Source: a virus
Taxonomy: Duplodnaviria; Caudoviricetes
Strand: one strand, 5' to 3'
Virus record (IMG/VR): IMGVR_UViG_3300022723_000184
Coordinates: 64,001 to 128,000 of that record
Length of the DNA: 64,000 nucleotides
Numbering within the stretch: position 1 is the stretch's first letter; every line of letters starts with the position of its first letter. Shown in pieces: positions 3,857 to 61,979 of the stretch. Below the pieces are notes generated by a model. It was given only the letters and a program-made list of their open reading frames with translations, was not told where the DNA came from and did not search any database. Made by a program: the position numbers and the translations under genes.

Positions 3857-3883
3857 GCCAGCCCGCCGGCTAAAAGGCGGGAC
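3857..3883 (+). promoter_or_regulatory. conserved hairpin motif copy 1: GCCAG-CCCGCC-GGCTAAAA-GGCGGG-AC
   Basis: Perfect 6-bp stem; same flanks and loop start as copies at 8759, 36881, 37895, 60139(-) and 61952. Confidence 0.75.
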
Positions 3884-3899
3884 CACGAAGGGAAGACCC

Positions 3900-4340
3900 A
3901 TGAGCGACCAGACCAAGCAAGCTGAGACGGCGTCGCTGCCCTCCCCGGAGGACGCGTACAACCACCTGCTCGGCAACGTCCACTCGCAGGTATTCTTCGG
4001 CAAGCTCGCCCAGGTCGGCATCCATCCCCAGACGGAGAAGGAAGCCAACGACCTGTTGGAGCTGGCCGGTAAGCTGCGGCTCGTCAACGACGACCCCGCG
4101 GTGAAGCAGGCTGCCGAAGCGGACAGCAAGTACGCCAAGGCCAACGCCGCCCTCGACGAGCTGTTCGGTAAGAGCGGCGCCATGAAGCAGGCCAGCGCCC
4201 AGGAGCAGGACGTCGCCCTCGACCAGGCTGCCCGCACCCTGGCCCAGGATCCCCAGATCTACAACTCCGTGCTGAGCATCAAGGCGGCCCAGGCCGAGGA
4301 GATCGCGAAGCAGCTGGGGCTCGGGCAGGACGCGGCCTGA
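3900..4340 (+). CDS. hypothetical head-associated protein (146 aa)
   Basis: Clean ORF with RBS; five K-x-A motifs like the scaffold proteins. Confidence 0.6.
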   Translation: MSDQTKQAETASLPSPEDAYNHLLGNVHSQVFFGKLAQVGIHPQTEKEANDLLELAGKLRLVNDDPAVKQAAEADSKYAKANAALDELFGKSGAMKQASAQEQDVALDQAARTLAQDPQIYNSVLSIKAAQAEEIAKQLGLGQDAA

Positions 4341-4396
4341 ATCTGAGCGAATCCGGACCGATCTAATCGGCCCGCATCCACGGAAGGAACACGACC

Positions 4397-4744
4397 ATGA
4401 GCGATTTCACGTTCGACATGAGCTGCCTCTTCTCGACCGTCAAGAACAACAGCGGTCAGAAGCGGAAGTTTGGCTTCCTGCCGCCGCACGGCCGGGAGCT
4501 GGACGTCGACGAGGAGTTCACCTTGTTCGGCCACGTCACCGAGGCGATGATCGCCTTCGAGCGTGTGACCAACAAGCGGAGCATCGACGCCCTTCAGCGC
4601 TCGCTGGACAGCGGCGACCTCCTGATCCTCAGCACACCGAACCCGGTCCTGCAGGACGTCACGACGGCCGCCGTCCAGATGATCCAGCTCGACAACGGTT
4701 CGCTGACCGTCGTCGACCCATGCTGGAAGGTCTCTGCCTCCTGA
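4397..4744 (+). CDS. hypothetical virion protein, paralogue of 5471-5842 (115 aa)
   Basis: Shares STVKN.SG...FGFLPPHGRELDVDEE and TPNP..QD...A.VQM...DNGS with the downstream ORF; ends VSAS. Confidence 0.7.
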   Translation: MSDFTFDMSCLFSTVKNNSGQKRKFGFLPPHGRELDVDEEFTLFGHVTEAMIAFERVTNKRSIDALQRSLDSGDLLILSTPNPVLQDVTTAAVQMIQLDNGSLTVVDPCWKVSAS

Positions 4745-4777
4745 GCGGCTGCCTGACGGCGACACATCGACACCAAG

Positions 4778-4810
4778 ACGGCCCGCAGGGATACCCTGTG
4801 GGCCGTTTTT
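4778..4810 (+). terminator. intrinsic terminator
   Basis: 13-bp stem ACGGCCCGCAGGG/CCCTGTGGGCCGT, loop ATA, then TTTT. Confidence 0.8.
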
Positions 4811-4830
4811 CGTAGGCCAGGGAGGGCGCT

Positions 4831-5409
4831 ATGACCGTCGAGGAAAAAAACGAGAAGAAGGGCAAGATGAGTCCGTTCGCCAAGGTCTGTGTCTACATCG
4901 TCACGGCCATAACCCCGGTCGCCGGAACCGCCGTGGTCAACTTCATCCGCGACCTGGATCAGCGGGTCGAGGACGTGGAGAAGACCCAGACCGCGGCGTT
5001 TCACACGATCTACGAGAACGAGACGATCAACCAGCGGCAGTGGGAGATTCTTGGGGCGGTCCGCACCAACTCCGAGGCCAACAGGCGTGTGCTGGACCTG
5101 TACAACCTGCTGCTGGTCAGCGACCAGATCGACATTGAGAAGCTGTCGGAGGCCATGGCCGTGGTCCGGGCGATCGAGCAGTCCGGGCTCTCAGAGGCCG
5201 AGATCAAAACGGCACTCCACACGCTGCAACGGCTCAAGTCGCTCAACCCGTTCGGACACAACGCCCCGAAGCCCGCGGTGCTCCCCACGCTACCGGCGCC
5301 GGTCCCCGTGCCCAACGTCCAGCAGCAGCAATCCACCCGCCCAGATCTCCTGTCGCCCGAGGAGCTTCAGCGGTACATCGAGCAAAAGAAGGGCGGCGTC
5401 AAGAAGTAG
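4831..5409 (+). CDS. single-pass membrane protein with coiled coil and Pro/Gln-rich tail (possibly lysis-related)
   Basis: Basic N-terminus, hydrophobic VCVYIVTAITPVAGTAVVNFI, then coiled-coil; lysis role is a guess. Confidence 0.5.
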   Translation: MTVEEKNEKKGKMSPFAKVCVYIVTAITPVAGTAVVNFIRDLDQRVEDVEKTQTAAFHTIYENETINQRQWEILGAVRTNSEANRRVLDLYNLLLVSDQIDIEKLSEAMAVVRAIEQSGLSEAEIKTALHTLQRLKSLNPFGHNAPKPAVLPTLPAPVPVPNVQQQQSTRPDLLSPEELQRYIEQKKGGVKK

Positions 5410-5414
5410 GTTTA

Positions 5415-5423
5415 TGCTATACT
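5415..5423 (+). promoter_or_regulatory. extended -10 TG-C-TATACT
   Basis: Intergenic; lies within inverted repeat AAGAAGTA(5401)/TACTTCTT(5420). Confidence 0.5.
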
Positions 5424-5470
5424 TCTTTCGGCTGCAGGGATGTAGCATGCTCACCGGATGGATCTGTTGT

Positions 5471-5842
5471 ATGAGCACCATCTGTCTTTACTCAACCGTC
5501 AAAAACACGTCCGGCATCCGGATGCGGTTTGGCTTCTTGCCTCCGCACGGCCGGGAGCTGGACGTCGACGAGGAACTGTCGATCTTCGGGTTCGTGGCTG
5601 AGCTGCTGGACGCCCAGGGGGCCAAGGCCTTCCAGCGGGCGATCGACGCCGGCTACCTGGAGATCCTCGATACCCCGAACCCCATCGTCCAGGACGCTGC
5701 GACGGCCGTCGTCCAGATGGTGCGGACCGACAACGGTTCGATCACCGTGGCCGACACCTGCTGGGGCGTTACCGCCAACCTGGTGACCGAGGACGACGAG
5801 GAGCTGTTGACCGAGGGCGATGACGAGATTGTCGTCGAGTAA
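5471..5842 (+). CDS. hypothetical virion protein, paralogue of 4397-4744 with acidic LVTEDDEELLTEGDDEIVVE tail (start uncertain, 5447 or 5471)
   Basis: Alignment by eye to 4397-4744. Confidence 0.65.
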   Translation: MSTICLYSTVKNTSGIRMRFGFLPPHGRELDVDEELSIFGFVAELLDAQGAKAFQRAIDAGYLEILDTPNPIVQDAATAVVQMVRTDNGSITVADTCWGVTANLVTEDDEELLTEGDDEIVVE

Positions 5843-5859
5843 GCAAGGAGGCTTATCCC

Positions 5860-7107
5860 GTGGCCGATCAAGTGAAGATTTCAGCGTTGCCCGCCGCCAC
5901 CACGCCGCTCGCCGGTACGGAGGAGGCGGTCATCGTCCAGGGCGGACAGTCCCGCAGGGTCGCGGTCAGCGAGTTCGCTGGCTCGGTCGCCGTGTTCGGT
6001 CAGGGCAGCGACGGCCTGGTACCCGGTCCGTCGTCCGGCGACGTGTCCGCCAACCGGCTGCTCCAAGCTGACGGTAGCTGGGTGGACCCGCCGACCACTT
6101 TCTCCCAGGACGTCGCGGGCCTGGTCCCCGGACCGACGGCGAGTGACGTCTCGAACAATCGACTGTTGCAGGCCAACGGCGCCTGGGTCGACCCTCCGTC
6201 CGGCGGCGGCATGAACCAGGCCGGCGCCGGTACGTTCAGTGTCACAGGTACCGGCGCCAACGCCGGAGGTCGATGCGACTCGGGCACGGTGACGGTCGAC
6301 GGCAGCGGCGCGCTGTTCAGCGGTTACAAGGCCGGCCCGGCGACGCTGAACGTGAGCGGCGAGGGCGCCACGGTGCTCGGCCTGATTGTGAGCGGCACCG
6401 TTGACTTGGACGCCGACGGCACGTTCGCGATGACGTATCACCTGGACGGCTCGCTGACCAACCCGAACGGGAACACCGGCGCGTCGTTCATGGGCCACAT
6501 GCAGGGCTCCTCGACGGCCGTCGTGCTACAGGGCGACGGCACCTCGGTCCGAGGCCACTTCACCGGCGGCACGGTCACGGTCAGCGGCTCCGGCGCCCGA
6601 TTCCGCGGTCGCTCGATCACGAGCGGCACTTGCACGGTGAGCGGCAGCGCGGCCGTGTTCGATGGGCTCACGCAGAACGGCGCGACCACCACTCTCAGCA
6701 GTGACGTGGCCCGGTTTGAGGGAGCCAACGTCGGCGGCACGGTGCTCGTTGATTCGACTGCGGCCAAGGCGTCGGGCTACTTGGACAATGCGAGTGCCGT
6801 GATGAATTCGACGGGGCTCGCATCGTTTGTGCATGCGTACATCCCCGGCGCCGGCACGGCCGAGGCTACCGCAAACGGCTCGTGGCAAATCGGTATCGGG
6901 TCCTGCACGGTTGCAAACGCTTTCCAGTTGGGTGCCGGTGTGTTGCACTGTCGATTTGAAGCCGGTAGCGAGACGTTCGCGATGTTCGGGGCAACTCCGG
7001 TGGCACAACAGAGCGATCCAGCCAGTCCGGCGGCCGATACCGGCGAGCTTAAGACGGCTGTCGACGCTCTCCGAACCATCATGCTCAACTACGGCATGAC
7101 GGCCTGA
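5860..7107 (+). CDS. fibre protein (probable head/neck fibre), 415 aa
   Basis: N-terminal KISALPAA adaptor, two GLVPGP.S.DVS.NRLLQA.G.WVDPP repeats, Gly/Ser/Thr beta-repeats, C-terminal MFGATPVAQQ...VDALRTIMLNYGMTA end of a type common in trimeric phage fibres. Confidence 0.6.
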   Translation: MADQVKISALPAATTPLAGTEEAVIVQGGQSRRVAVSEFAGSVAVFGQGSDGLVPGPSSGDVSANRLLQADGSWVDPPTTFSQDVAGLVPGPTASDVSNNRLLQANGAWVDPPSGGGMNQAGAGTFSVTGTGANAGGRCDSGTVTVDGSGALFSGYKAGPATLNVSGEGATVLGLIVSGTVDLDADGTFAMTYHLDGSLTNPNGNTGASFMGHMQGSSTAVVLQGDGTSVRGHFTGGTVTVSGSGARFRGRSITSGTCTVSGSAAVFDGLTQNGATTTLSSDVARFEGANVGGTVLVDSTAAKASGYLDNASAVMNSTGLASFVHAYIPGAGTAEATANGSWQIGIGSCTVANAFQLGAGVLHCRFEAGSETFAMFGATPVAQQSDPASPAADTGELKTAVDALRTIMLNYGMTA

Positions 7108-7149
7108 TGTCTGTTGGATTGTGTTAACCCATTCGGGTAACATCTCGGC

Positions 7150-7470
7150 ATGAACATCAACTTCGACCTTGAGGTCAAACGGCTGTCCGGGGCACCGTTC
7201 CTGGACGGAGGTGCGGCGAAAGAGGGGGAGGAAGCTCCCCCGCTCTTGCTGAAGAACGGCGTGGTCAACTGCCTGTTGGAACCGCAGCAGGCCGATGCCT
7301 CAGCCAAGGGTGCGACCAAGCTCGAACTCTACGAGCTGGCCCGCAAGATTTCGGCGGGCGGCGAGGTCGACCTGTCGGCCGAGGAGATCACCAAGGTCCG
7401 TGAGCGGGTGCAGGCCAGCTCGTACGGCATCGAGGTGATCGGCGCGATCTGCGACATGGTCAAGGCGTAG
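7150..7470 (+). CDS. small fibre-associated chaperone-like protein (106 aa)
   Basis: YELARKI...EVDLSAEEITKVRERV pattern common in small genes that follow phage fibres. Confidence 0.5.
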   Translation: MNINFDLEVKRLSGAPFLDGGAAKEGEEAPPLLLKNGVVNCLLEPQQADASAKGATKLELYELARKISAGGEVDLSAEEITKVRERVQASSYGIEVIGAICDMVKA

Positions 7471-7489
7471 ATGGAGGAGGGCGGTACAG

Positions 7490-8692: not shown

Positions 8693-8713
8693 CTCGCCGT
8701 TCGGGACGGCCAG

Positions 8714-8722
8714 TGGTATAAT
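8714..8722 (+). promoter_or_regulatory. extended -10 TG-G-TATAAT
   Basis: Consensus hexamer plus TG, intergenic, flanked by GTGGT/GCCAC inverted repeat. Confidence 0.65.
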
Positions 8723-8758
8723 GCCACCAGGACTACGTTTGGCGAGTATCAGCGCAAT

Positions 8759-8786
8759 GCCCGCTCATCGGCCTGGAAGATGAGAC
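8759..8786 (+). promoter_or_regulatory. conserved hairpin motif copy 2: GCCCG-CTCATC-GGCCTGGAA-GATGAG-AC
   Basis: Perfect 6-bp stem immediately before the GGAGG RBS of 8799. Confidence 0.75.
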
Positions 8787-8798
8787 GCGGAGGCAAGG

Positions 8799-9158
8799 AT
8801 GCCCGATCTCTTTCCCATCTTGGACGACAAGCCTGAGACGTCCATCCGGGAGTTCGGGGAGATCGCCGCCCTGGCCGCGGATGCCACGGGCACGGTCCTC
8901 TCCTTTACCAACGCGGGTCCCGGTGTTGCCTGGATCGATGGCGTTCGTGGCGAGGGCGATGGCGACGCACGCTGGCAGCTGGTGATCGAGACCGTGGTTA
9001 AGGACTCGACCCGGACCAGCATTGCGACACCCAAGGCGGAGTTTTTGTTCCCAACGCCGCAGCGGTTGGAGGCCGGCGAGACCCTGGAGGTCAAGGTCAC
9101 CAACTGCATCGACGGCCTGGGCAAGTACAACGCCTCGCTCTTCGGCCACAGAGACTGA
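8799..9158 (+). CDS. hypothetical beta-sandwich protein (119 aa)
   Basis: GGAGG RBS, clean ORF, alternating hydrophobic beta-strand pattern. Confidence 0.6.
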   Translation: MPDLFPILDDKPETSIREFGEIAALAADATGTVLSFTNAGPGVAWIDGVRGEGDGDARWQLVIETVVKDSTRTSIATPKAEFLFPTPQRLEAGETLEVKVTNCIDGLGKYNASLFGHRD

Positions 9159-9160
9159 TC

Positions 9161-9472
9161 ATGGGAGACATCGTTCGCTCCGGCGACAACTCGCAGAAGA
9201 TCATCAAGGCCGACATCGGGCTGACGCTCAAACGGCTGCGGATCATGATCTCTGAGAAGGAGGTTCAGCTGGACGGGATCAACGTTCGTATCCAACAGCT
9301 CAAGAGCGTCGAGATTAAAAATCTGCAGCTGCAGCAGGACGTGATCGTCCGAGAGATTCAGGAGCTGAAGGTAGAGGCACAGGAGCTGACTCGGAAGGCG
9401 ATGGAGGAAGGTCGGGAGGACGCTATCATCGACGCCGAGTTTGAAGTGAAAGAAGATCAACCCACCGGTTAA
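9161..9472 (+). CDS. hypothetical coiled-coil protein (103 aa)
   Basis: Heptad pattern, tight gene packing. Confidence 0.6.
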   Translation: MGDIVRSGDNSQKIIKADIGLTLKRLRIMISEKEVQLDGINVRIQQLKSVEIKNLQLQQDVIVREIQELKVEAQELTRKAMEEGREDAIIDAEFEVKEDQPTG

Positions 9473-9503
9473 CGCCGGCTGACTGTTCAAGGAGGAACAG
9501 CTC

Positions 9504-10937: not shown

Positions 10938-10981
10938 TAGGCGGGTGTCGGCCGATGCCAATCTCTTAGGAAGGATTTGTC

Positions 10982-11233: not shown

Positions 11234-11245
11234 GGATGATGGCCC

Positions 11246-11653: not shown

Positions 11654-11656
11654 CGC

Positions 11657-12790: not shown

Positions 12791-12792
12791 CG

Positions 12793-14923: not shown

Positions 14924-14943
14924 CCAGAGCGTAGAGGTCAAGG

Positions 14944-25958: not shown

Positions 25959-25988
25959 GCCGACCTAAAAAGCACTTTTTAGATCGGC
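25959..25988. repeat. AAAAAGCACTTTTT palindrome copy 2, within a 30-bp imperfect inverted repeat
   Basis: GCCGA-C-CTAAAAAGCACTTTTTAG-A-TCGGC; core at 25967-25980. Confidence 0.9.
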
Positions 25989-36156: not shown

Positions 36157-36874
36157 GACACCCGATATCGATTTCGACCAGGCGTATACGTCGTGGGCCT
36201 CGGACAGGTCTCCGCAGGCCAACGCCACGATCCTGAAGGTTCTCGACCCGGTGATCAGCCAGGCGGTGCAGACACACGTCGGTACGAGCAACCCGCTGCT
36301 CAAGGCCCGGGCCCGGAAGATGACGCTCGGCGCCCTGGGCTCGTTTGACCCGAAGCGGGGCCGGCTCAAGAGCCACTTGTATTCGCAGCTCCAAGGCCTC
36401 AAGCGGCAGCATGCCAAGCAGCAGAGCATCTTCCGGGTGCCCGAGCGGCTGATGTTGGACCGCCGAGGTCTGAAGGCGGCGCAGCAGGAACTGGAAGACG
36501 AACTGGGGCGGGAGCCGACGGACCAGGAGCTGGCGACGCGCACCGGGTTCTCGGTCGACCGGATCTCTCGCATCCGGCAGTTCAGCCCCGCGATGAGCGA
36601 GGGCTTCTTCTCGACGGTGGGCGAGGGCGGCATGGTCCCACAGTCCACGAGCCCGATCAGCCAGCAATCGTCGTGGGTCCAGGTGGTGTACGACGACCTG
36701 GGCCCGCTCGACAAGAAGATCATGGAGTGGACGCTGGGCCTCAATGGCCAACCCCGACTCTCGAACCAGGAGATTGCTTTGAGGCTCAAGAGGTCCCCGG
36801 GCGCCATCAGCCAGCGAAAGGCGCTGATCCAGCAGATGCTTGACGAGGAGCAGGACCTTTCCCCTTTTCTATGA
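36149..36874 (+). CDS. sigma70-family RNA polymerase sigma factor (regions 2-4, 241 aa)
   Basis: FDPKRG (region 2.2), IFRVP, ELGREPTDQELA (region 3), L...DKKI....GL....LSNQEIA..L.RS...ISQ (region 4 HTH). Confidence 0.8.
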   Translation: MPETPDIDFDQAYTSWASDRSPQANATILKVLDPVISQAVQTHVGTSNPLLKARARKMTLGALGSFDPKRGRLKSHLYSQLQGLKRQHAKQQSIFRVPERLMLDRRGLKAAQQELEDELGREPTDQELATRTGFSVDRISRIRQFSPAMSEGFFSTVGEGGMVPQSTSPISQQSSWVQVVYDDLGPLDKKIMEWTLGLNGQPRLSNQEIALRLKRSPGAISQRKALIQQMLDEEQDLSPFL

Positions 36875-36880
36875 AACTAT

Positions 36881-36907
36881 GCCAGCTCGTCGGCTTAAAA
36901 GCGAGAC
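36881..36907 (+). promoter_or_regulatory. conserved hairpin motif copy 3: GCCAG-CTCGTC-GGCTTAAA-AGCGAG-AC
   Basis: 5 bp including one G-U plus one mismatch; directly after the sigma gene stop. Confidence 0.7.
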
Positions 36908-36931
36908 AAGGCGAGACCTCTGAGGTAGACC

Positions 36932-37408
36932 ATGGGTACCGAACCGAAACCACAGTCCAAGGCCGAGATCGACTCGAACTTCGAGGGTCAGATCAAGAAG
37001 CTGCGTGAGCGGGCCAAGGACGAGGCCGACGCGAAGCTGGGCGGCGACAACGCCCAGTGGAACATCCCGGAGCTGGGCGATTGGGACGGCGACCTGTTCG
37101 CGGTCGAGGAGATCAGCGACGCGTTCAAGCGGGAAGAGGCCAACGAGAAGTTCGAGGAGGCGACCAAGGACTCCAGCTCGCCGGGTGTCGCCGGCGACCT
37201 CGGCGTTACCACACTGCAGGTTGACTACTTGGCCTGCATGGACCGGGCCTTCCGGGCCAGGCACACGATGCGACGGCCCCGGACCATGGCCCACATGACC
37301 GGCCGCCGCAAAGGCCACGGCAACGAGCGAGGTACGCTGACCCAGACGGCGTTGGAGTTCGCCCGCAACCTGCTTAAACAGGCCCAGGCGTCGGGAGGTG
37401 GTAGCTGA
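36932..37408 (+). CDS. hypothetical protein (158 aa)
   Basis: GAGG RBS, GC3 bias, coupled to the next gene. Confidence 0.6.
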   Translation: MGTEPKPQSKAEIDSNFEGQIKKLRERAKDEADAKLGGDNAQWNIPELGDWDGDLFAVEEISDAFKREEANEKFEEATKDSSSPGVAGDLGVTTLQVDYLACMDRAFRARHTMRRPRTMAHMTGRRKGHGNERGTLTQTALEFARNLLKQAQASGGGS

Positions 37409-37893
37409 TGACCGTGACCGGATCCGTTGCTGCCTACGCCGATCGTCAGATCGACATGCTGGCTTTCCAGAACCCAGGTATCGGGAGCCTGGAACTGGTC
37501 GACTTGATCCTCGTCCCCGACGGCGGCAGCGGGTTCAGCATCGCCGGCATCGCCAAGCTCGCCCAGCGGTTCTTGATCGAGCTGCTGACTGAGCAGGGAT
37601 CGATCCCGTACGACACGGTCCGCGGCTCGACGTTCCTCACCGAGCTTCGGCAGGGTAGGGTGCGTACGACGCCGGCCGCCGAGACCGCGTTCTACCTGGC
37701 GCTGGACCAGGTGAAGCTCCAGCTGCAGCTGGAGGAGTCCGACGACATGCCCGACGACGAACGGTACGGGCGAACGACCCTCGACTCGATCGTGCTGTCG
37801 CCGGCCGATACGGTAAAACTACGACTGACGTTGTTCAGCTTGGCGGGGACCGGCGTGACGCTGTTGCTCCCGATTGAGACTACGCTTGGATAG
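37408..37893 (+). CDS. baseplate wedge gp25-like protein (161 aa)
   Basis: GIAKLAQRFLIELLTE.GS......GS.F pattern; precedes the J-like gene. Confidence 0.7.
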   Translation: MTVTGSVAAYADRQIDMLAFQNPGIGSLELVDLILVPDGGSGFSIAGIAKLAQRFLIELLTEQGSIPYDTVRGSTFLTELRQGRVRTTPAAETAFYLALDQVKLQLQLEESDDMPDDERYGRTTLDSIVLSPADTVKLRLTLFSLAGTGVTLLLPIETTLG

Positions 37894-37894
37894 T

Positions 37895-37922
37895 GCCAGC
37901 TCGCTGGCGAATAGAGCGAGAC
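37895..37922 (+). promoter_or_regulatory. conserved hairpin motif copy 4: GCCAG-CTCGCT-GGCGAATAG-AGCGAG-AC
   Basis: Perfect 6-bp stem, upstream of the RBS of 37940. Confidence 0.75.
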
Positions 37923-37939
37923 GATAAGGCAGGGAAGCC

Positions 37940-39643
37940 ATGACGATTCAGATCACCAACCTGGACGACGTGAACCAAGAGCTTGTCGCGGACAACCTCG
38001 ACGAGATCATCACGCGCCTGCAAGAAGACAACCCATCACTCGACCTCCGGCGAGGCGTCCTCAAGGACCTGCTTGCCGGCTACCACGCGTCGCTGAGCGC
38101 TGCCGAGCAGCAGACGTTGGCCCGGTACCTCAGCGCCCGGTCGCTGCAGCAGATCGAGGCCGATCCGACGCTGGCCGACGAGGGGGTGACCGACGACGTC
38201 CTCTCCAACTACCGGGTCACCCGGCAGCAGGGGGCTACGGCCCAGGGTGAGATCACGATCGTCGTCAGTCAGAACACCACGGTGGTCATCTCCGAGGGAG
38301 CCATCTTCGAGGCCGACGGGCAGCAGTTCGCTAGCGATTCGGTGTTCACGGCCAAGACCGAGGCCGCCCAGATCAACACGTCGACCGACCGCCTGCTTCA
38401 ACAGCGATCGGACGGCAACTGGTTCTTCACCATCACGGTGACCGCGGCCGAAGTCGGGACCGAGGGGAACATCGCCAAAGACACTTTCATGGTGCCGGCC
38501 GTGCCCCCGCCCAACTACGTCACGTCGTTCGCGACCAACGACTTCGTGAGCGGGACCAACACCGAGACCAACACCCAGCTGCTCCAACGATTGCAGGAGG
38601 GGCTCGCGGCCAGGGCCCCGTCCAACCGCACGAACATGAAGGGGATGCTCCGAGAGATCTCCGACGAGGCGTACGCCGGCAACCTGCATAGCTCGATCGT
38701 CGGGTTCGGCGACGAGGAGATGCTCCGTGACCAGCACACGATCTGGCCCGGCAGCCTGGGCGGGCGCTCCGACTGGTACATTCGCACGGTCGAGCAGCTG
38801 TTCCGGCTGACGCTGCAGCGGGAAGCCACGCTCGTCCAGATCGGGACCCGTGGCGAGCTATCGAATAACTGCTCGCCCGGAGGCCCCAACGCCTCGGACA
38901 TCGTAACGGTCTGGCAGTTCGCCCTGGCCCGCGACGACGCCCCCGGTTTCTACGAGATCCGGACGGTACGCCCCCTGGGATTCGATGAGGCCAGCGGCAG
39001 CTTCGAGATCCTGGCCGACATCCGGGGCCTGGACCTGACGGGCGACGGCTTCGTCCCGGACATCGACACCGTGGAGGAAGGGGCGTACAGCCGCTACCAG
39101 ACCACGGTCATCAAGTTCATTGACGACCAGGTTGACCCGACCACGGTCGCGGTCGGGGACACTAGCGCCTACGACGTGTCAGTGGCCATGATGCCCCAGA
39201 TCGGCGACATCCAGGACGACCTGAACACCCGCGACATCCGCAGCTACGGGTCCGACGTCCTGATCAAGGCCCCGGTACCCTGCTTCGTGTCGCTCTCGTT
39301 CACGATCAACAAACAGAACAACGTGCCGGACCCGGACCTCGATGCGATCAAGACGGCGTTGGCCAAAGAGGTCAACACGATTGCGTTCCTAGGCCGGCTG
39401 TACGCTTCGCAGCTGCACGACGTGATCCAAGGCCTGCTCGGAACCACGACCAGCGCCGGCAAGATCGACATGTTCGGTCGCCTGCGTTACCCGGACGGCA
39501 CGACCAAGTACGTCCGTGACTTTGAGGTGCTGGCGATCGACGGGCCGGCCGGGCAAATGGTCAGCCCGAAGACCGTGCAGTTTTATCTGGACGTCGAGGA
39601 CATCTCGATCTCGATCGCGACCAGCGTCCCCGTGCCCTCTTAA
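37940..39643 (+). CDS. baseplate J/gp6-like wedge protein (567 aa)
   Basis: DLRRGVLKDLL, A.G.ITI, A.EVG..GNI, F.SG...ET...L..R motifs of baseplate J proteins. Confidence 0.8.
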   Translation: MTIQITNLDDVNQELVADNLDEIITRLQEDNPSLDLRRGVLKDLLAGYHASLSAAEQQTLARYLSARSLQQIEADPTLADEGVTDDVLSNYRVTRQQGATAQGEITIVVSQNTTVVISEGAIFEADGQQFASDSVFTAKTEAAQINTSTDRLLQQRSDGNWFFTITVTAAEVGTEGNIAKDTFMVPAVPPPNYVTSFATNDFVSGTNTETNTQLLQRLQEGLAARAPSNRTNMKGMLREISDEAYAGNLHSSIVGFGDEEMLRDQHTIWPGSLGGRSDWYIRTVEQLFRLTLQREATLVQIGTRGELSNNCSPGGPNASDIVTVWQFALARDDAPGFYEIRTVRPLGFDEASGSFEILADIRGLDLTGDGFVPDIDTVEEGAYSRYQTTVIKFIDDQVDPTTVAVGDTSAYDVSVAMMPQIGDIQDDLNTRDIRSYGSDVLIKAPVPCFVSLSFTINKQNNVPDPDLDAIKTALAKEVNTIAFLGRLYASQLHDVIQGLLGTTTSAGKIDMFGRLRYPDGTTKYVRDFEVLAIDGPAGQMVSPKTVQFYLDVEDISISIATSVPVPS

Positions 39644-39656
39644 AAAGTACTTTTTA
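39641..39656. repeat. TAAAAAGTACTTTTTA palindrome copy 3, overlapping the stop codon
   Basis: Read directly; followed by GATC and the ATG at 39661, which has no SD. Confidence 0.9.
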
Positions 39657-39660: not shown

Positions 39661-41211
39661 ATGGCCGACTTCCTCTATCCGACCAACGACTTCGACCGCC
39701 GCAACCGGCTGCTGGCTGAGGTGGCGTCGTTCTGGAACAACGTGTTCGGGCAGCGGGAGTTTGTCCGCGACATCCTGTTCGCCAAGGGTCAGCTGGAGCA
39801 GCAGACGGTTCAGCAGCTGACCGAGCTGTTCGATTCGGTCAGTCGCTTCAAGCTGCCGCCGTTTCATTTAGAGCGATGGTATCTGATCACGCTGCTGGAG
39901 TCTGACCTCAACCAGGGCAAGGCCGCCCAGCTGCTGTACGACGGTGAGGTCGACTACGACCCGACCGGCCCTTTCAAGTACGGGGTCCCCCGACAGCTCA
40001 ATCAGTTCACGTGGGATGCGCCGGCCGAGCTGGTCGACACCGGTGTCCTGGTCAACCGGATCCACGACGCCAGCCTGACGATGACCCGGGGCGTCGACTT
40101 CCTGTTGGAGGACGGGAGCCTGTTCTTCAGGGAGAACCCGTTCGACAACCCGCTGGTCCCGGTCCGCGACATCGTCGTCGGCCAGGAGGTCGTCGACCGG
40201 CAGATCGGTCTGTGGGTCTTCCAGGCCAAGTTTGACTGGGACTACATCTTCGAGCAGTTCGGGTACGTCATCCAGCTGTCGCTGGAGAGCGGCGACGAAT
40301 ACAAGGGCATGATCAACGCGGTGTTCGACGCCCTGGTCGAGGGCACGACCCAGCGGTCGGTCGAGAACGCCTTCGAGGCGATGACCGGCTCCACCCTGGT
40401 CCAGAACCCGACGGAGACCGTCAAGGCGATCGTCGACGAGCCGGGCAGGCAGCTGGTGATCACCGACCAGGTCGTCTACGAGTACAGCGACCTGGTCAGC
40501 GTCATCGTTTCTGTGGGCGACAAGGTCATCGAGGGCCAGGCTCTGGTCGACACGCTCCAGTTCTTCGAGTTCAACCGGGGCCAGTGTCCGACGCAGGAGC
40601 AGTGCCAGGCGGTCGCCTTGGGTCGTGGTTTCCTGGGTCGCGGGTTCTTCGGTGACCTGGTGTTCGAGAACAAGAGCACGCCACTCGTGGTCGAGACCGA
40701 CGACGAGGGGTACACCAAGGTCAGTTGGGAGATCGGCGGGTTCCCGACCGACGTCGTGAAGTTCTTCGACGACCTGCACGCTAACGGGCTTGCCGCCGGC
40801 CAGACGCTGGCCAACCTGCTCGACACCCGGACCAATAAGGTCGGCGAGCCGCAGGCGAGCAACCTACCGACCACAATCAACCCGTTCGAGTTTCTGTGTC
40901 AGAACGTGCTGAGGAACCACGCCTACCTGGCCAAGATCCGGACGGCCGGCTTCGGGCCGGGCGCCGTGGGCATGAACGCCGGAAAGATCCTGAGAAAGGT
41001 ACATCCACCGCAGACTGCTCTAATTATCGCCGCGGAATTGGCTCACACGGACGATCCGATTATCATGGAAGATCCGGGTACGGAGACCGCGCCGGGCTAC
41101 GAGGAGACCGTCTCGACCTACACCGGAATGGTGCAAGCCGAGACGATTTCACCGGATACGGCGATGGACGAGTGCGTGCGGGTCAAGCTGATCTCGGGCC
41201 GCTGCACCTAA
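39661..41211 (+). CDS. baseplate wedge protein, gp7/gpI-like (516 aa)
   Basis: Follows the J-like gene; YK..INAVFDAL..G.T...VE.A pattern. Confidence 0.55.
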   Translation: MADFLYPTNDFDRRNRLLAEVASFWNNVFGQREFVRDILFAKGQLEQQTVQQLTELFDSVSRFKLPPFHLERWYLITLLESDLNQGKAAQLLYDGEVDYDPTGPFKYGVPRQLNQFTWDAPAELVDTGVLVNRIHDASLTMTRGVDFLLEDGSLFFRENPFDNPLVPVRDIVVGQEVVDRQIGLWVFQAKFDWDYIFEQFGYVIQLSLESGDEYKGMINAVFDALVEGTTQRSVENAFEAMTGSTLVQNPTETVKAIVDEPGRQLVITDQVVYEYSDLVSVIVSVGDKVIEGQALVDTLQFFEFNRGQCPTQEQCQAVALGRGFLGRGFFGDLVFENKSTPLVVETDDEGYTKVSWEIGGFPTDVVKFFDDLHANGLAAGQTLANLLDTRTNKVGEPQASNLPTTINPFEFLCQNVLRNHAYLAKIRTAGFGPGAVGMNAGKILRKVHPPQTALIIAAELAHTDDPIIMEDPGTETAPGYEETVSTYTGMVQAETISPDTAMDECVRVKLISGRCT

Positions 41212-41224
41212 AGGCAGGGAAGCC

Positions 41225-41815
41225 ATGCAAGAAATCATCCTCCCAAACAAGAGCGTCTCTGGTCGGGTCCGCGCCCACGAGGTTCGTGGCGACGTCTGGG
41301 ACCTTCTGACCGCGTGGGACCACAACCAGGTCCTCTACGGCTGGGGGACCGTGGTCGGCACGCTGCTGACCAAGGGCCTGTCCAACTACCGCATCGGTGG
41401 GATGTACCTGGAATACGAGAACGTCGCGGACCCCGACGACCCGGTGTCGGCCCCGACCTTCGACCGGAGCGGCGGCAAGAGCTACTACGACGGCCTGGGC
41501 CTCAGCGCGACCCGCGACTACCTCCGCGTCCCGCTGACCGCCTCGCTCTTGAGCAGCAGCGATGAGACGCTGTTCCCGGACGGCAACGTGATGACGTTCT
41601 TCGCCCAGTCCCAGGGCGTGACGGGGGCCAACGGCAAGGCGTTCAGCGACACGGTCAACTCCAAGATCTACGGAGGGGCCCTGGTCGCTTTCCTGGATGA
41701 GGCGGACGCGGATCAGGATATCGTCTTCAGCCGCTTCTACTTCTCGGTGGCGAACCAGCAGGTGAAGTTGCCCACCTCCCAGATCGGGTTGGAGTGGGAG
41801 ATCACGCTGCAGTAG
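41225..41815 (+). CDS. baseplate/fibre attachment protein (196 aa)
   Basis: G.V........HNQV...W and FSRFYF......K....IG.EW.I.L pattern of fibre-anchor domains. Confidence 0.5.
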   Translation: MQEIILPNKSVSGRVRAHEVRGDVWDLLTAWDHNQVLYGWGTVVGTLLTKGLSNYRIGGMYLEYENVADPDDPVSAPTFDRSGGKSYYDGLGLSATRDYLRVPLTASLLSSSDETLFPDGNVMTFFAQSQGVTGANGKAFSDTVNSKIYGGALVAFLDEADADQDIVFSRFYFSVANQQVKLPTSQIGLEWEITLQ

Positions 41816-41888
41816 CGGCTAGAGTCACACCTTGTAAGCCGGTGCGCTGGCATGGTGACGCTAGTATAGCTAGATAAGGGGCTCAAGG

Positions 41889-45792: not shown

Positions 45793-45795
45793 TCC

Positions 45796-48125: not shown

Positions 48126-48128
48126 CCA

Positions 48129-51194: not shown

Positions 51195-51199
51195 GTCGT

Positions 51200-53646: not shown

Positions 53647-53650
53647 CTGC

Positions 53651-56087: not shown

Positions 56088-56094
56088 GGTCCGC

Positions 56095-58077: not shown

Positions 58078-58078
58078 T
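58073..58078 (+). promoter_or_regulatory. consensus -10 TATAAT overlapping the GT stop codon
   Basis: Read directly; 8 nt upstream of the structured element; no clear -35. Confidence 0.55.
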
Positions 58079-58086
58079 ACTTCCAT

Positions 58087-58197
58087 GGGTAACGGTAACG
58101 CAAAAGACATGGCCGGTTAACGGTTTGGTCGCCTCCTGGTCCTTCAACGAGAAGCGGTTGACGGAGCCAAGAACGCCATGTGGTTGGTCCGTTACCC
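58087..58197 (+). ncRNA. candidate rod-like structured RNA or 5' leader (~111 nt)
   Basis: Nested helices GGGTAACGG/CCGTTACCC, ACATGGC/GCCATGT, TTGG/CCAA, CTCC/GGAG, TCAAC/GTTGA. Confidence 0.55.
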
Positions 58198-58228
58198 GAG
58201 CCCTGACCACCCCCGTCGGGGGTCGCGA

Positions 58229-58588
58229 ATGAAAACTGGTCCGCAGCTAGTCATCAACCACATGATCTTCTTCGACATGATCGGAGACCCCGCCTTCTAC
58301 TCGAAGGTGCCGGCCTTCTTCTTCATGCGGGACCAGGGTCTGGCCATCCACAAGAAGATCACCGACGCGGTCCTGGAGAAGGCAGGGTGCCGGGGCTGCA
58401 CGAACATGCGCCAGCAGGTCTGGCCGATCTTCCAGGTCTTCGCTCAGCAGGCCTTCCTGCTTGGCCAGGAGAATCCGGAAGCTCTAAAGCCTTTGGGGGA
58501 TTACATTGCAGGGAAGAAGGGCTACCGACCTACAGAAATACTGCTGTATTTCAGATATCAAGGAATAACGCATAAACTTGTAATATGA
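58229..58588 (+). CDS. small CxxC protein, paralogue of 59723-60037 (119 aa)
   Basis: LVI..M.....F....P.F, GCRGC, C-terminal YF.YQG....L.I. Confidence 0.6.
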   Translation: MKTGPQLVINHMIFFDMIGDPAFYSKVPAFFFMRDQGLAIHKKITDAVLEKAGCRGCTNMRQQVWPIFQVFAQQAFLLGQENPEALKPLGDYIAGKKGYRPTEILLYFRYQGITHKLVI

Positions 58589-59244
58589 AAACTACAACGA
58601 AACCAAAACACGGAAGATTTAACGACCTAGAAGGTCGCAAATTTTCTAGATGGGCCGTAGTAGGTTATGCAGGCAGGAAACTTACCGGGAAACAGATGAA
58701 GACTTTCTGGTGGTGCCGTTGCTCTTGCGGTACCACTCGGCAGGTGGAGGCGCAATCTCTGAGTTCCGACGGATCTAAGTCTTGCGGATGTTACGAACGC
58801 GAGGTTGCGGGCGAGCACAGGCGAGTACACGGCGGCACAGGAACAGTAGAGTACACAACCTGGAAAAGGCTTCGCAGCAGATGCAACAATCCAAAATCGC
58901 CTGACTGGAACAATTACGGGGGAAGAGGAATAAGGGTATGTGCCGAGTGGGACGCTATTGAAACCGGATTCTCCAAGTTCTTGCTCGATATGGGTCCCAG
59001 GCCAGGCGACTATTATTCCGTAGAGCGCAAGGACAACGACGGACCGTATAGCGCGGAAAACTGCGTATGGGCGACAAACTACGAACAGAGCCGAAACAGG
59101 CGAACTAACCACATGTTTACCTGGGAAGGTGAAACTCTGTGTCTGAAAGACTGGGCAAATCGTTTCAACATTAAATACGACAAGTTGCGTCGCAGGTTGT
59201 TAAAATACGGATGGCCTTTTTACCGGGCAATCACGACAGCGTAG
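58585..59244 (+). CDS. free-standing HNH endonuclease (YGGRGI.VC family, 219 aa)
   Basis: DL.G.KF.RW, W.CRC.CG, SCGC, YGGRGIRVC..W, ERKDNDGPYS.ENC.WAT..EQ.RNRR; AT-richer. Confidence 0.9.
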   Translation: MKTTTKPKHGRFNDLEGRKFSRWAVVGYAGRKLTGKQMKTFWWCRCSCGTTRQVEAQSLSSDGSKSCGCYEREVAGEHRRVHGGTGTVEYTTWKRLRSRCNNPKSPDWNNYGGRGIRVCAEWDAIETGFSKFLLDMGPRPGDYYSVERKDNDGPYSAENCVWATNYEQSRNRRTNHMFTWEGETLCLKDWANRFNIKYDKLRRRLLKYGWPFYRAITTA

Positions 59245-59261
59245 ACGCAAGGAGGCCAGGG

Positions 59262-59714
59262 ATGGCCAGAGGCATCAGGCTCACACGACACTCGGTCAAG
59301 AACGCCAACCACTGGCACCTCCGCGCCTTCCGGCTGCGGATCGAGGTGGCCGAGACCAGCCCCGACATGAGCCGATACGTCTTCGTCTACCGGCGGCACC
59401 CTCCGGACCCGTACACCGGCGAGGTCTTCGACGAGTTCTGCACCGTCGCGAGCCCCGTTGACATGAGCGAGTACCCGGTGGGCGCCCCCGACCCCAACCT
59501 GCCGTTCCCGTTCTTCCGAAAGGATTTCATTGAGGTCGACGTCCGGTCGCTCAAGGACTTCGACGAGACGTGGGACCTTGTCGTGAAGCAGGTCTGCGTC
59601 CTGACCCAGGCCCTCGACGACATGGAGAACCTGGTGCAGGACGAGGAGGCGGTATGCGGTACGCTGCCCAGCGGTTCCGAGTCAGTCTCCGAGTCCGAAT
59701 CGGTCTCGTCGTAG
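59262..59714 (+). CDS. hypothetical virion-type protein with Ser-rich tail (150 aa)
   Basis: AAGGAGG RBS; ends SGSESVSESESVSS. Confidence 0.65.
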   Translation: MARGIRLTRHSVKNANHWHLRAFRLRIEVAETSPDMSRYVFVYRRHPPDPYTGEVFDEFCTVASPVDMSEYPVGAPDPNLPFPFFRKDFIEVDVRSLKDFDETWDLVVKQVCVLTQALDDMENLVQDEEAVCGTLPSGSESVSESESVSS

Positions 59715-59722
59715 GAGCGGCC

Positions 59723-60037
59723 ATGGCCACAGCAGCACACAAGCTGGTCGTGATCCAGGACAACACCCTGAAGAACATGGCCAAGCAAACGCGGTTCACC
59801 AAGGAGTTCCCGTTCCTTCAGTCGCTCAACCGACTGAACCAGGGCGCCCCGAAGCGAGGTTGCGGCGGGTGCCGATCGAGCAACAACCGGGTGTCCGAGG
59901 TATTCGCTGCGGCAAAGCGTGCGCTGGCCTCGCTGCCGGCCTCGAAGAAGCGGGTGCTCAAGGAGCTGCTTGGGGCTAAGAAGGTGCGGGTTACCTACCG
60001 TCAAGCAGGCGGGAAGACGGTCGAACTGACCTTTTAA
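59723..60037 (+). CDS. small basic CxxC protein, paralogue of 58229-58588 (104 aa)
   Basis: AGGAG RBS; LVVI...L..M....F..EFPF, GCGGC, VTYRQ.GG..V.L.F. Confidence 0.65.
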   Translation: MATAAHKLVVIQDNTLKNMAKQTRFTKEFPFLQSLNRLNQGAPKRGCGGCRSSNNRVSEVFAAAKRALASLPASKKRVLKELLGAKKVRVTYRQAGGKTVELTF

Positions 60038-60138
60038 AGTCACGCCTTTTGAACCGGTATGCCGGCATGTTGACACCAGTACGGCTACCTAAATAAACGT
60101 GTTTTTTGCGTCAAAATACATGCAGGCAAATTAGCCCG

Positions 60139-60166
60139 GTCTCATCTTCTAAACCGATGAGCAGGT
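60139..60166 (-). promoter_or_regulatory. conserved hairpin motif copy 5 on minus strand: ACCTG-CTCATC-GGTTTAGAA-GATGAG-AC
   Basis: Reverse complement of 60139-60166; perfect 6-bp stem; minus-strand TATAAT at 60182-60187 upstream. Confidence 0.7.
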
Positions 60167-60196
60167 ATTAAGATCCTCGGTATTATAGCCGAACCG

Positions 60197-60227
60197 CACC
60201 CGGCACATCGCCGGGTGTTTTTCTTTT
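60197..60227 (+). terminator. intrinsic terminator closing the structural operon
   Basis: CACCCGGC-ACATC-GCCGGGTG followed by TTTTTCTTTT. Confidence 0.8.
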
Positions 60228-60328
60228 CACCCCACCCCTCGTCCCGGTAGGCGTCCTGCTTGCCGGGGCTTTCGTCGCGGGCCTGTTGTCCGCGACTACT
60301 ACCACCTCCTCCAGAAGGGAAAATTGTC

Positions 60329-60613
60329 ATGATCGATCACAACCCCGTCCCCGCCATCCTCGTCCAGGACATCATCGACAACCAGGATCTGGGCCGTGCG
60401 ACCAACTTGGTCGCCTACGTCCGCAAGAATCTGCTGACCTCAGCCCGCGAAACAGGCCTCAGCAATATTGCGGTTGAGCGTTTAATCTCCAGCACGTTGG
60501 AACGGCTGACCCGTGGGGTGCGTGAGAATGCACCAAAAGACCGTCGATTTTTGTTCTGGGTCAACGACCGTCTCCTGCGGCGTGAGATCCTCGAAGGCCG
60601 GATCGCCGCGTAA
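60329..60613 (+). CDS. hypothetical helical protein (94 aa)
   Basis: AAGGGA RBS, ATG 60329. Confidence 0.5.
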   Translation: MIDHNPVPAILVQDIIDNQDLGRATNLVAYVRKNLLTSARETGLSNIAVERLISSTLERLTRGVRENAPKDRRFLFWVNDRLLRREILEGRIAA

Positions 60614-60648
60614 GCGATCGGCATCGATCCTTCAGAGAAAGGGACAAC

Positions 60649-61113
60649 ATGTTCAAATTCGCACCGTTCCTGCTACTCGTCGTCTGTTCGGCGACACTGG
60701 CCGACCAGTCTGCCGACGAGTCACAGATCAACTGGAATCTGGTCTTCAAGTGCCTTCACATGAAGGAGGCCAGCGGTAAACTGAGCCCCGATCGTGGGGA
60801 CGACGGTAAGGCCCTTGGACCCTACCAGATCCACGAGGTTTACTGGAAGGACGCGCTCAAGGGTGATCCGTCGATCGGCGGGAAGTACGAGGACTGCAGC
60901 GACAAGGCCTACTCCGAGAAGGTGATCAAGGCTTACATGCGACGGTGGCTCGTGGTGAGCCGGGTCGGCAAGGTGATGACCTACGAACTCATTTGCCGGT
61001 CCCACAACGGGGGAGGCCCTAGGGCCTGGCCCAAGCACCCCGGCCACATGCGGTGGCTTCAGGCCTCCCAGGCGTACTGGGAGTCTGCGGTCTTCGATCC
61101 CCTGCGGAAATAG
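60649..61113 (+). CDS. secreted lysozyme-superfamily protein resembling i-type (destabilase) lysozyme (154 aa)
   Basis: Signal peptide MFKFAPFLLLVVCSATLA; KEASG, GPYQIHEVYWKDA, GG.YEDC, YM.R., HNGG motifs. Confidence 0.65.
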   Translation: MFKFAPFLLLVVCSATLADQSADESQINWNLVFKCLHMKEASGKLSPDRGDDGKALGPYQIHEVYWKDALKGDPSIGGKYEDCSDKAYSEKVIKAYMRRWLVVSRVGKVMTYELICRSHNGGGPRAWPKHPGHMRWLQASQAYWESAVFDPLRK

Positions 61114-61194
61114 ACCGAAAATCACAGGTCCCGATTGACCTTGATTGACGACGCAATACCGGCTCATCAGCCGGGAAAACTAGGAGAAGCTATC

Positions 61195-61929
61195 ATGAAG
61201 ACTCTGATCATCGCTATCGCTGCCGTGCTGCTCGTGTGTCCGGCGTTCGGGCAGGAGCAGGAGACGAAACTTCAATCACTCGGCGCTCGTCGGGCCATGG
61301 TCCGCTACAAGGCCAAGGTCGCGAACGCAGAGCGCCTGTACAAGGCCGCACTGTTGCGAGCGGCGAAAGACCTGAAAGAAGAACTTCAAGCCGACCTCAT
61401 CAAGGTTACGAAGACCGGCAACCTGGAGTCCGCCAACCAGGTGAAGGCCGAGCTGGATCGCATTCAGGCGGAAATCGAAAAGATGACCAACCCTGACGCT
61501 AAGCCGAGCAATACGCCCAGCGACTCCGTTGAAATCACTGAGGGCGATCCGAATGTCAAAGTCGGGAAACTCAAGCCCACTCGCGACTGGTGGACGCTCG
61601 CCCAACTCAAAGCAGGTGACAAAGTTTACTTCCGGGCGGCTGGAACATGGGAGATCTTTGGCGTCGGCACCTGCGGGCCTGACGGCGGCCGTGGAAGCAA
61701 GGGCGACAAGAACGACCCGCTCCCCGGCGCTCCAGTGGGCGCAATTCTCGGCAGGCTTCCTGGCTCCACCGACGAGAAGCGGGCTACTGGCTTTGTGATT
61801 GGGCGCAGCGCCGTATTCACTGCCAAGGAGGATGGCGCGTTCCAGCTTCGCGTCAACAAGACGAGCGGCTACATCTACAAGTGCGATGGCGAACTGGCCT
61901 ACAAAGTCAAGGTCGTTCCAGCCAACTGA
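61195..61929 (+). CDS. secreted coiled-coil + LecA/PA-IL-like lectin-domain protein (244 aa)
   Basis: AGGAG RBS; signal peptide MKTLIIAIAAVLLVCPAFG; W....LKAGD.V...A.G.W...GP.G...PL..AP.GA.LGR...F.IG...G.F.L.VN. Confidence 0.55.
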   Translation: MKTLIIAIAAVLLVCPAFGQEQETKLQSLGARRAMVRYKAKVANAERLYKAALLRAAKDLKEELQADLIKVTKTGNLESANQVKAELDRIQAEIEKMTNPDAKPSNTPSDSVEITEGDPNVKVGKLKPTRDWWTLAQLKAGDKVYFRAAGTWEIFGVGTCGPDGGRGSKGDKNDPLPGAPVGAILGRLPGSTDEKRATGFVIGRSAVFTAKEDGAFQLRVNKTSGYIYKCDGELAYKVKVVPAN

Positions 61930-61932
61930 TCC

Positions 61933-61946
61933 AAAAAGTACTTTTT
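61933..61946. repeat. AAAAAGTACTTTTT palindrome copy 4
   Basis: Read directly, 3 nt after the stop at 61929. Confidence 0.9.
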
Positions 61947-61951
61947 AAAAT

Positions 61952-61979
61952 ACCCGCATATCGGCTTAAAAGATATGAC
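61952..61979 (+). promoter_or_regulatory. conserved hairpin motif copy 6: ACCCG-CATATC-GGCTTAAAA-GATATG-AC
   Basis: Perfect 6-bp stem of quite different sequence, immediately before the GGGAGG RBS. Confidence 0.75.

Follow-up and report, generated by a model that had tools for sequence, protein, structure and literature searches.

Repeats of the CRISPR type (short palindromic repeats, clustered and regularly interspaced) that lie outside arrays are known as anti-CRISPR decoys (PMC10651486) and as regulators of cas loci (bioRxiv 10.1101/2023.03.03.530964). For the type V-M effectors, characterized Cas12m proteins, D-E-D ones included, bind DNA that carries a flanking protospacer adjacent motif (PAM) without cutting it and process their own precursor CRISPR RNA (pre-crRNA) (PMC11013384), and Cas12m orthologues silence through DNA binding without cleavage (PMC11013384; PMC10442227). 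The crRNA bound by Cas12m2 of Mycolicibacterium mucogenicum has a G(-23):A(-2) pair and a helix of C(-22)-C(-17) with G(-8)-G(-3), which the protein contacts only via the backbone (R237, R241); A(-24) flips outward, H269 and R270 read C(-1), no order is seen for the first seven of the 36 nucleotides contributed by the repeat, and the guide forms a 17-bp heteroduplex (PMC10442227). Here we analyze a family of hairpins in a 64,000-nt stretch of phage DNA, bases 64001-128000 of the 201,946-bp virus record IMGVR_UViG_3300022723_000184 (G+C 62.5%); positions given as "window" refer to this stretch and those given as "genome" to the whole record. A preliminary description had reported six intergenic copies with a covarying 6-nt stem and fixed flanks, and had placed them in no known family. 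A second reading of the sequence reproduced their positions, arms and pairing exactly. The family can nonetheless be named: the hairpins are almost certainly solitary copies of the repeat, that is the crRNA handle, of the phage's own type V-M CRISPR-Cas12m system, whose array and cas12m gene lie outside the window. Overall, the earlier interpretation is partly supported.

Scanning the whole record for the hairpin revealed many copies beyond the first six, including a run of eleven with a period of 72-73 bp at genome 151.5-152.3 kb. This run is a CRISPR array (genome 151503-152247) of eleven 36-nt repeats (...AATACCTG-CTCATC-GGTTTAGAA-GATGAG-AC) and ten spacers, all unique (34-37 nt, plus one of 20 nt), with a leader in which a TATAAT box stands 7 nt before the first repeat. 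The open reading frame directly upstream of the array (genome 149596-151365), the sole Cas12m-type gene of the phage genome, codes for a 589-aa protein with a Cas12f1-like TNB domain that matches Cas12m structures over its full length (PDB 23vw, E 5.9e-67; Cas12m2, 8hhl, E 1.5e-26). The protein has the D-E-D RuvC triad and retains, at the aligned positions, R237, R241, R245, H269 and R270, the handle-reading residues of Cas12m2. Both are outside the window, past its end by about 21.6 kb (cas12m) and about 23.5 kb (array). When IMG/VR was searched with Cas12m peptides, no close relative came up; the closest homologue, at 46% identity, is encoded on a JGI contig that carries an array and no solitary units within 21.7 kb. 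Neither megablast of 20 kb of the window nor blastn of the array against 50,697 phage records gave a match.

The hairpin motif is the 3′ 29 nt of the 36-nt array repeat, and its consensus, (T)RCCNG-[C....C]-GGY...-[G....G]-AC, corresponds feature for feature to the layout of the Cas12m2 handle. As in Cas12m2 (PMC10442227) and in GoCas12m and others (PMC11013384), a 36-nt repeat combines a 6-bp helix, closed by G(-23) pairing with A(-2), with a terminal C(-1) and another short helix, the array adjoins the gene of an effector of about 590 aa that keeps the handle-reading residues, and no trans-activating crRNA is needed; the loop counts 9 nt in most copies here versus 8 in Cas12m2. Unlike in those systems, the copies of this phage are mostly solitary and spread genome-wide, their stems differ from the array stem, and they are followed by local DNA, often a ribosome-binding site, instead of an acquired spacer. 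The myxophage MV-1 likewise encodes a Cas12m with a D-E-D RuvC triad next to a small array, without adaptation genes or identified protospacers (bioRxiv 10.64898/2026.09.14.751636); the report on it mentions no solitary repeats, and with a 610-aa protein and 8 spacers it is a different system.

We aligned 25 units, 17 from this genome and 8 from other phages. G(-23), A(-2), C(-1) (columns G14, A36 and C37) and the loop GG are invariant in all 25, and both helices taken together are paired in 98.1% of cells, versus 25-41% when the partners are slid, with 41 double-change cells versus 10.7 +/- 2.5 in shuffles. In the 6-bp helix, 97.9% of cells are paired and two-sided changes occur at five of the six pairs. 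A second, 3-bp helix joins RCC of the 5′ flank to GGY at the start of the loop; it is paired in 98.6% of cells, its variable pair being GC in 16 sequences and AU in 6, and we infer that it corresponds to the "stem" of the Cas12m2 structure in a pseudoknot-type fold. Set against that structure, the positions read base-specifically are fixed and the pairs contacted through the backbone covary: stems differ at up to four of six pairs and still pair, and the 5′ stretch without order in the structure varies freely. Stems that diverge yet pair, beside fixed protein-read bases, indicate that the units are maintained by purifying selection on the handle structure and are not decaying, which upholds the selection on RNA structure proposed from the first six copies. 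RNA carrying such a handle would be expected to be bound by the phage Cas12m.

These observations bear directly on the nature of the reader. The preliminary description had envisaged a new hairpin family recognized by a phage factor, with sigma factor, boxB/put-type antitermination and N4-like single-stranded DNA hairpin promoters as models. That the element serves a phage-encoded factor fits the motif being the repeat of the phage's own Cas12m system; that the factor is any of those named is highly improbable. Covarying stems, fixed flanks and the lack of an Rfam match within the window at the gathering threshold would agree with an unrelated reader, but a Cas12m locus of the same genome has this motif as its array repeat, and the motif agrees with the Cas12m handle as solved. 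The boxB hairpin has a short GNRA-like pentaloop and accompanies boxA, and N4 promoters carry, on single-stranded DNA, a stem of 5-7 bp and a 3-nt loop where transcription starts, unlike the loop of 8-9 nt found here, which pairs with the 5′ flank in a second helix. Most sense copies have no promoter geometry, the gene taken for a sigma factor (window 61135-61929) matched nothing in Pfam or PHROG, lenient thresholds included, and shows no link to the units, and relatives without Cas12m have no copy.

Because the aligned units had been picked partly on pairing, the genome was also searched with the anchors alone, without a stem criterion. The pattern [CT]CNG-C....C-GGY-loop-G....G-AC has 24 matches versus 1.84 +/- 1.2 in 100 second-order Markov genomes, an excess of about 13-fold, and 23 of the 24 hold at least three of the four inner stem pairs, versus 0.38 in the simulations. 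Every unit lies outside coding sequence or at its very edge. A covariance model of the motif (R1) and run over the whole genome gave 26 strong matches, made up of the 11 array repeats and 15 solitary units, and three weaker solitary ones at genome 163592-163628(-), 129550-129594(-) and 149551-149575(+), the last at E 3. The window thus holds eight units and not six (Table 1), the additions being 41824-41860(-) and 60039-60075(-), whereas the weak copies suspected at window 1654-1678(+) and 3794-3820(-) received no support from the scan. As a negative control only, with no bearing on the host, a tighter pattern (CCNG flank, loop GGYTTNRAA) was run on bacterial genomes, where 2 of the first 120 matches listed were fully paired, which is chance level. 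Folding energy was dropped as a criterion, since energies alone fail to single the copies out: the hairpins by themselves are modestly stable (folding z -0.7 to -2.6 in seven window copies, +0.36 in w36886, the 36872-36907 unit), and unit 60039-60075(-) favours a different fold in isolation. The case for the motif therefore rests on covariation.

Table 1. Solitary repeat units and associated features in the window, with their scores under the covariance model R1.
Feature	Position	Strand	Sequence features, score or basis	Surroundings
Intrinsic terminator	3823..3847	+	Terminator scan; terminator placed at 3823-3839	After major capsid gene (2854-3792; major head protein, PHROG, E 7.8e-9)
S1 solitary repeat	3848..3883	+	Stem CCCGCC/GGCGGG, 8-nt loop; R1 30.6 bits, E 7e-5	5′ leader of 146-aa gene (start 3900), between the capsid gene terminator and the Shine-Dalgarno site
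S1 "guide" position	3884..3902	+	Shine-Dalgarno site (AAGGGAAG) + ATG of next gene; sequence reading, geometry	
Extended -10 box TGGTATAAT	8714..8722	+	Sequence reading	27 nt upstream of S2
S2 solitary repeat, full 36 nt	8750..8786	+	Stem CTCATC/GATGAG as in array; R1 45.3 bits, E 2e-8	Before ATG at 8799 (119-aa gene)
S3 solitary repeat	36872..36907	+	Stem CTCG(T)C/GCGAG, one bulge/mismatch; R1 40.6 bits, E 3e-7	Before ATG at 36932 (158-aa gene)
S4 solitary repeat	37886..37922	+	Stem CTCGCT/AGCGAG; R1 33.7 bits, E 1e-5	Overlaps stop codon of upstream gene; before ATG of baseplate-J-like gene (37940-39643; Baseplate_J Pfam match, E 2.6e-11)
A5 promoter-fused unit	41824..41860	-	Stem CGCACC/GGTGTG; R1 45.3 bits, E 2e-8	Between two + strand genes, antisense into 3′ end of gene 41225-41815; TATACT box 41863-41868(-)
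A6 unit	60039..60075	-	Stem CATACC/GGCGTG, 5/6 pairs; R1 34.3 bits, E 1e-5	63 nt downstream of A7, behind promoter-like TTGACG-17-TAGGTA
A7 promoter-fused unit	60139..60175	-	35/36 identical to array repeat; R1 49.7 bits, E 2e-9	TATAAT box 60182-60187(-), 6 nt before repeat, same arrangement as array leader
S5 solitary repeat	61943..61979	+	Stem CATATC/GATATG; R1 42.7 bits, E 9e-8	Before ATG (61996) of 64-aa protein with two hydrophobic helices; 5′ end overlaps AAAAAGTACTTTTT palindrome

The solitary units come in two builds, and the minus-strand copy of the first description, at 60139, differs from the sense copies in being promoter-fused and antisense. In the promoter-fused build, a -10 box (TATACT, TATAAT, TACAAT or TACACT) precedes the repeat by 4-6 nt, an arrangement shared with the array leader. 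Nine units have this succession of -10 box and repeat, six of them within the scored distance (box 4-12 nt before the repeat) versus 0.3% at random positions. All promoter-fused units, three of which are in the window, are antisense or convergent to neighbouring genes, and two share an identical 56-nt cassette. The leader build is on the sense strand and has no -10 box of its own, apart from the extended box upstream of S2, which a strict two-hexamer sigma-70 scan did not call; a position directly behind a promoter, found for the promoter-fused units, does not hold for S1, S3, S4 and S5. The seven sense copies comprise the five in the window, one before a gene labelled recA-like and a degenerate one before cas12m (genome 149551-149575(+)), which has the array stem CTCATC/GATGAG, G(-23) and AC with a degenerate loop. 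Measured from the final AC, their distances to the start codon are, for S1-S5, 16, 12, 24, 17 and 16 nt, within the range of 12-24 nt first given, and 11 and 20 nt for the recA-like-labelled gene and cas12m. In all seven, a Shine-Dalgarno site lies within positions 1-18 after AC; this being the stretch that Cas12m holds as guide, the site sits in the "guide" position. S1 does follow the terminator of the major capsid gene, as had been stated. The leader units retain only repeat positions -29 to -1, the part that is ordered in the Cas12m2 structure (S2 is listed as full 36 nt). Solitary copies are followed by local phage DNA, and acquired spacers occur only in the array.

We assign a probability of roughly 0.55 to the reading in which the hairpins are Cas12m handles, the sense copies being placed before ribosome-binding sites for control in cis and the antisense copies being crRNA-like. 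According to this proposal, each sense copy would have arrived as a bare handle immediately upstream of a ribosome-binding site that was already there, such that the 17-20 nt held by Cas12m as "guide" would be the next gene's Shine-Dalgarno sequence together with its start codon. Cas12m would bind these leaders, might cleave on the upstream side of the handle, as happens with pre-crRNA, and would control translation or stability of the downstream message in cis by occlusion, cleavage or stabilisation; the copy before cas12m would provide feedback on Cas12m synthesis. Stand-alone crRNA-like transcripts would come from the promoter-fused antisense copies, whose build is that of the array leader. 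Control in cis at the RNA level by the leader units, taken by itself, is quite possible if somewhat short of even odds. We favour it because bare handles sit immediately before working ribosome-binding sites, because the leader units are kept under structural selection and have no promoters of their own, and because one of them stands on the message of the effector itself, as is classic for feedback through ligand mimicry. Translational operators that mimic the RNA ligand of a protein include the MS2 coat protein operator, those of T4 RegA and gp32, and the sites of ribosomal-protein feedback. The sense copies resemble them by analogy, not by family membership, in that a hairpin stands beside the Shine-Dalgarno site of messages that include that of the phage RNA-binding protein itself; they differ in that the ligand is a CRISPR handle and the protein a CRISPR effector, and in that repression is only predicted here. 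A bolder formulation, which the layout of the units allows us to offer only tentatively, is that the phage may have made its CRISPR effector a regulator of its own genes: Cas12m would grip the ribosome-binding site as though it were a spacer and set translation or processing of a regulon that includes its own message, with handles placed one guide-length ahead of the start codons in head, baseplate, recombination, small-membrane-protein and cas12m genes, and antisense handles forming a second, guide-RNA arm. Coordinated expression of head, baseplate and accessory genes, as first proposed, is a plausible inference for the sense copies only.

Several observations weigh against control in cis. 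Intergenic regions are short, so that any inserted element necessarily falls near a start codon. The copy before cas12m has a degenerate loop and reaches only E 3 with R1. Cas12m is known as a DNA binder, and a role on mRNA has not been described (PMC11013384). In other phages, copies are mostly promoter-fused or farther from start codons, and a search of the leaders of four further phage cas12m genes turned up no hairpin resembling the repeat. Finally, the complete 437-kb phage G003 carries eight promoter-driven copies and no Cas12m gene; such units can therefore work without a cis role or a resident effector.

The array-leader geometry of nine units is compatible with another function, namely that of extra guide RNAs. 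A unit and the DNA adjacent to it would then yield a crRNA directing Cas12m to silence paralogous sites of the phage, competitor phages free of the insert, or the host, in line with the silencing by DNA binding without cutting described for Cas12m orthologues (PMC11013384; PMC10442227). Regulatory mini-arrays with partly matching spacers are on record (bioRxiv 10.1101/2023.03.03.530964), and the units at 60139-60175 and 60039-60075 could form a mini-array of this kind, with a spacer that partly matches a promoter-like site elsewhere in the genome: the A7 guide agrees with a promoter-like site at genome 189.1 kb at 29 of 31 positions. This match is, however, part of a longer paralogy and hence no evidence of selection for pairing. 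The S4 "guide" is identical over 17 of 17 nt to the start region of the gene at genome 105225 (window 41211-41227, 196-aa gene, 3.3 kb away), and the shared 17-mer (AAGGCAGGGAAGCCATG, window 37926-37942 and 41211-41227) is the single outlier among 20,301 start-region pairs, but the match misses guide positions 1-3, which belong to the seed. The guides are local DNA and not acquired spacers, the flanks of candidate targets (GAG, CAC and GGT) and of the own locus (GAC) share no PAM and are not T- or C-rich, and the A5 guide differs from the orthologous site of phage G006 at seven of the first eight positions. Searches for protospacers in three whole relatives, around the capsid genes of 69 relatives and in the phage collection found none. 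Bar the two internal matches, the array spacers and all guides gave only chance-level matches to this genome, the 69 capsid regions, other Cas12m phages and the three whole relatives, so that no PAM could be derived. Solitary repeat units upstream of cas12a in V-A loci, CreA/CreR and crlRNAs (bioRxiv 10.1101/2023.03.03.530964; 10.1101/2024.12.27.630466) also place a repeat-like element before an effector gene, as may be the case before cas12m here; they lie inside cas loci and have PAM-flanked DNA targets, unlike the units described here, which are genome-wide and mostly in structural-gene regions, and for which we see no consistent PAM or target as in CreA/CreR-type regulators. Taken as an explanation of the units, guidance of Cas12m to DNA appears unlikely.

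Related systems occur in other phages. Three IMG/VR phages (G001, G002 and G004) encode a Cas12m (32-33% identity) next to arrays that have the same repeat architecture with other stems, and G002 and G004 have solitary units too. The eight dispersed units of G003 (loci including L033, L038, L043, L048, L053 and L057) each consist of a TTGACA-17-AGAAAT promoter, a type V-M repeat and a unique sequence, and are candidate decoys, or guides relying on a host Cas12m. Viral solitary repeats just behind promoters act as RNA anti-CRISPRs (Racrs) (PMC10651486), which raises the possibility that the units of the present phage are repeat mimics as well, soaking up Cas12m of the host or of a competitor, or buffering the phage's own, whatever sequence follows. 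Such a role suits promoter-fused units, the more so as G003 has eight of them and no Cas12m, and some stem variants resemble the array repeats of other phages, for example CGCACC in G004. The solitary repeat units of viruses, and Racrs (Faure 2019 as cited in PMC10651486; Camara-Wilpert 2023), are likewise single intergenic repeats, many directly behind a promoter; Racrs mimic host repeats and typically come without cas genes, unlike the 15-18 units here, about half of which are promoterless and in mRNA leaders. This phage carries its own cas12m, a gene of the same type as the repeats, and a matching array whose repeat is identical or nearly identical to several units, with which decoys would compete. 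The sense units moreover have no promoter and stand exactly beside ribosome-binding sites, a placement that a decoy does not need, and the five closest relatives lack Cas12m and units alike. The bacterial genome scan for the repeat gave chance-level pairing among the matches listed. We regard decoys as distinctly unlikely here.

Comparison with relatives provides insight into the origin of the units. A capsid protein search found 69 related phages of roughly 200 kb (57-88% identity), and no unit was found in any of them up to 8 kb from the capsid gene. Neither a unit nor Cas12m occurs anywhere in the five closest relatives (93-100% complete), and the same search recovers units and Cas12m in other phages. 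At the nucleotide level the relatives are only about 69% identical, over 13-27% of the genome, and the region after the capsid gene is too diverged from them to define an insert there. L299, a metagenome relative of the baseplate J gene (72% identity), has both orthologous junctions without units, at lengths of 7 nt and 11 nt versus 57 and 46 nt for the S3 and S4 junctions of this phage. S4 is a clean 35-nt insert relative to L299, between the stop codon and the start region GCAGGGA.GC.ATG, and S3 lies within an insert of roughly 50 nt. The 17-mer start region after S4 is also found in front of the baseplate-J orthologue of G008, a relative devoid of CRISPR parts, and is therefore older than the insert. 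Similarly, the A7 locus has a paralogue at genome 189.1 kb with the same flanks and without the roughly 59-nt insert of -10 box and repeat. These unit-free orthologous and paralogous junctions indicate that the units are derived insertions and that their "guides" are whatever DNA adjoined the insertion point. Both paralogous regions are promoter-like and on the minus strand (TTGCCTGCATGTATTTTGACGC-N17-TAGGT; 60076-60138(-) of the window, 189080-189230(-) of the genome), and both stand behind reverse-complement terminators; one drives A6 and the other runs antisense into the end of the gene at genome 188487-189113.

The insert-like structure at three sites could also be that of a selfish or neutral dispersed repeat, with or without a -10 box, spread by recombination or other copying and tolerated at gene junctions. 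The identical 56-nt cassette in two units would fit such spreading, as would an odd duplicated 3′ arm (..AGAC-AAG-GCGAGAC) common to S3 (window 36900-36917) and the weak unit at genome 129550-129594(-); this duplication offers two alternative closing arms and suggests a common ancestor of the two units. Compensatory stem changes, fixed protein-read bases and the confinement of units to sites outside coding sequence or at its very edge speak against passive spread, which we consider improbable.

In the literature searched, we came across no Cas12m phage described as having a family of handles dispersed in mRNA leaders. What appears to be new here is a Cas12m-bearing phage with about 18 structurally maintained handle copies, many directly before ribosome-binding sites. 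Should the handles be bound on mRNA, a natural class 2 CRISPR effector would be acting as an RNA-binding regulator of translation or processing, and a virus would be seen to build a regulon by inserting a 29-35-nt element. Should the units be guides or decoys, virus-encoded mini-CRISPR warfare would extend to type V-M. In either case, the stem variants reveal at which positions the Cas12m handle can be altered, knowledge of use in designing guides for Cas12m tools.

The 64-aa protein encoded after S5 (window 61996-62190) is holin-like or toxin-like, without family matches, and a long hairpin and terminator follow its gene (62190-62340). A second dispersed element, the perfect palindrome AAAAAGTACTTTTT, was observed at about 13 intergenic sites, usually 5-25 nt before a start codon or -10 box (window 61935-61945, 39644-39654, 25968-25978(-) and about 4-14; genome 660, 10521, 29723, 46826, 144101, 158498, 176722, 185328 and others). 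It abuts three repeat units (S5, genome 46795 and genome 53605) and could be an operator or a phage promoter element. The ends of the record (genome 1-150 and 201797-201946) repeat each other, the same sequence being present at 76 and 201873, which is consistent with a terminal repeat or a circular assembly.

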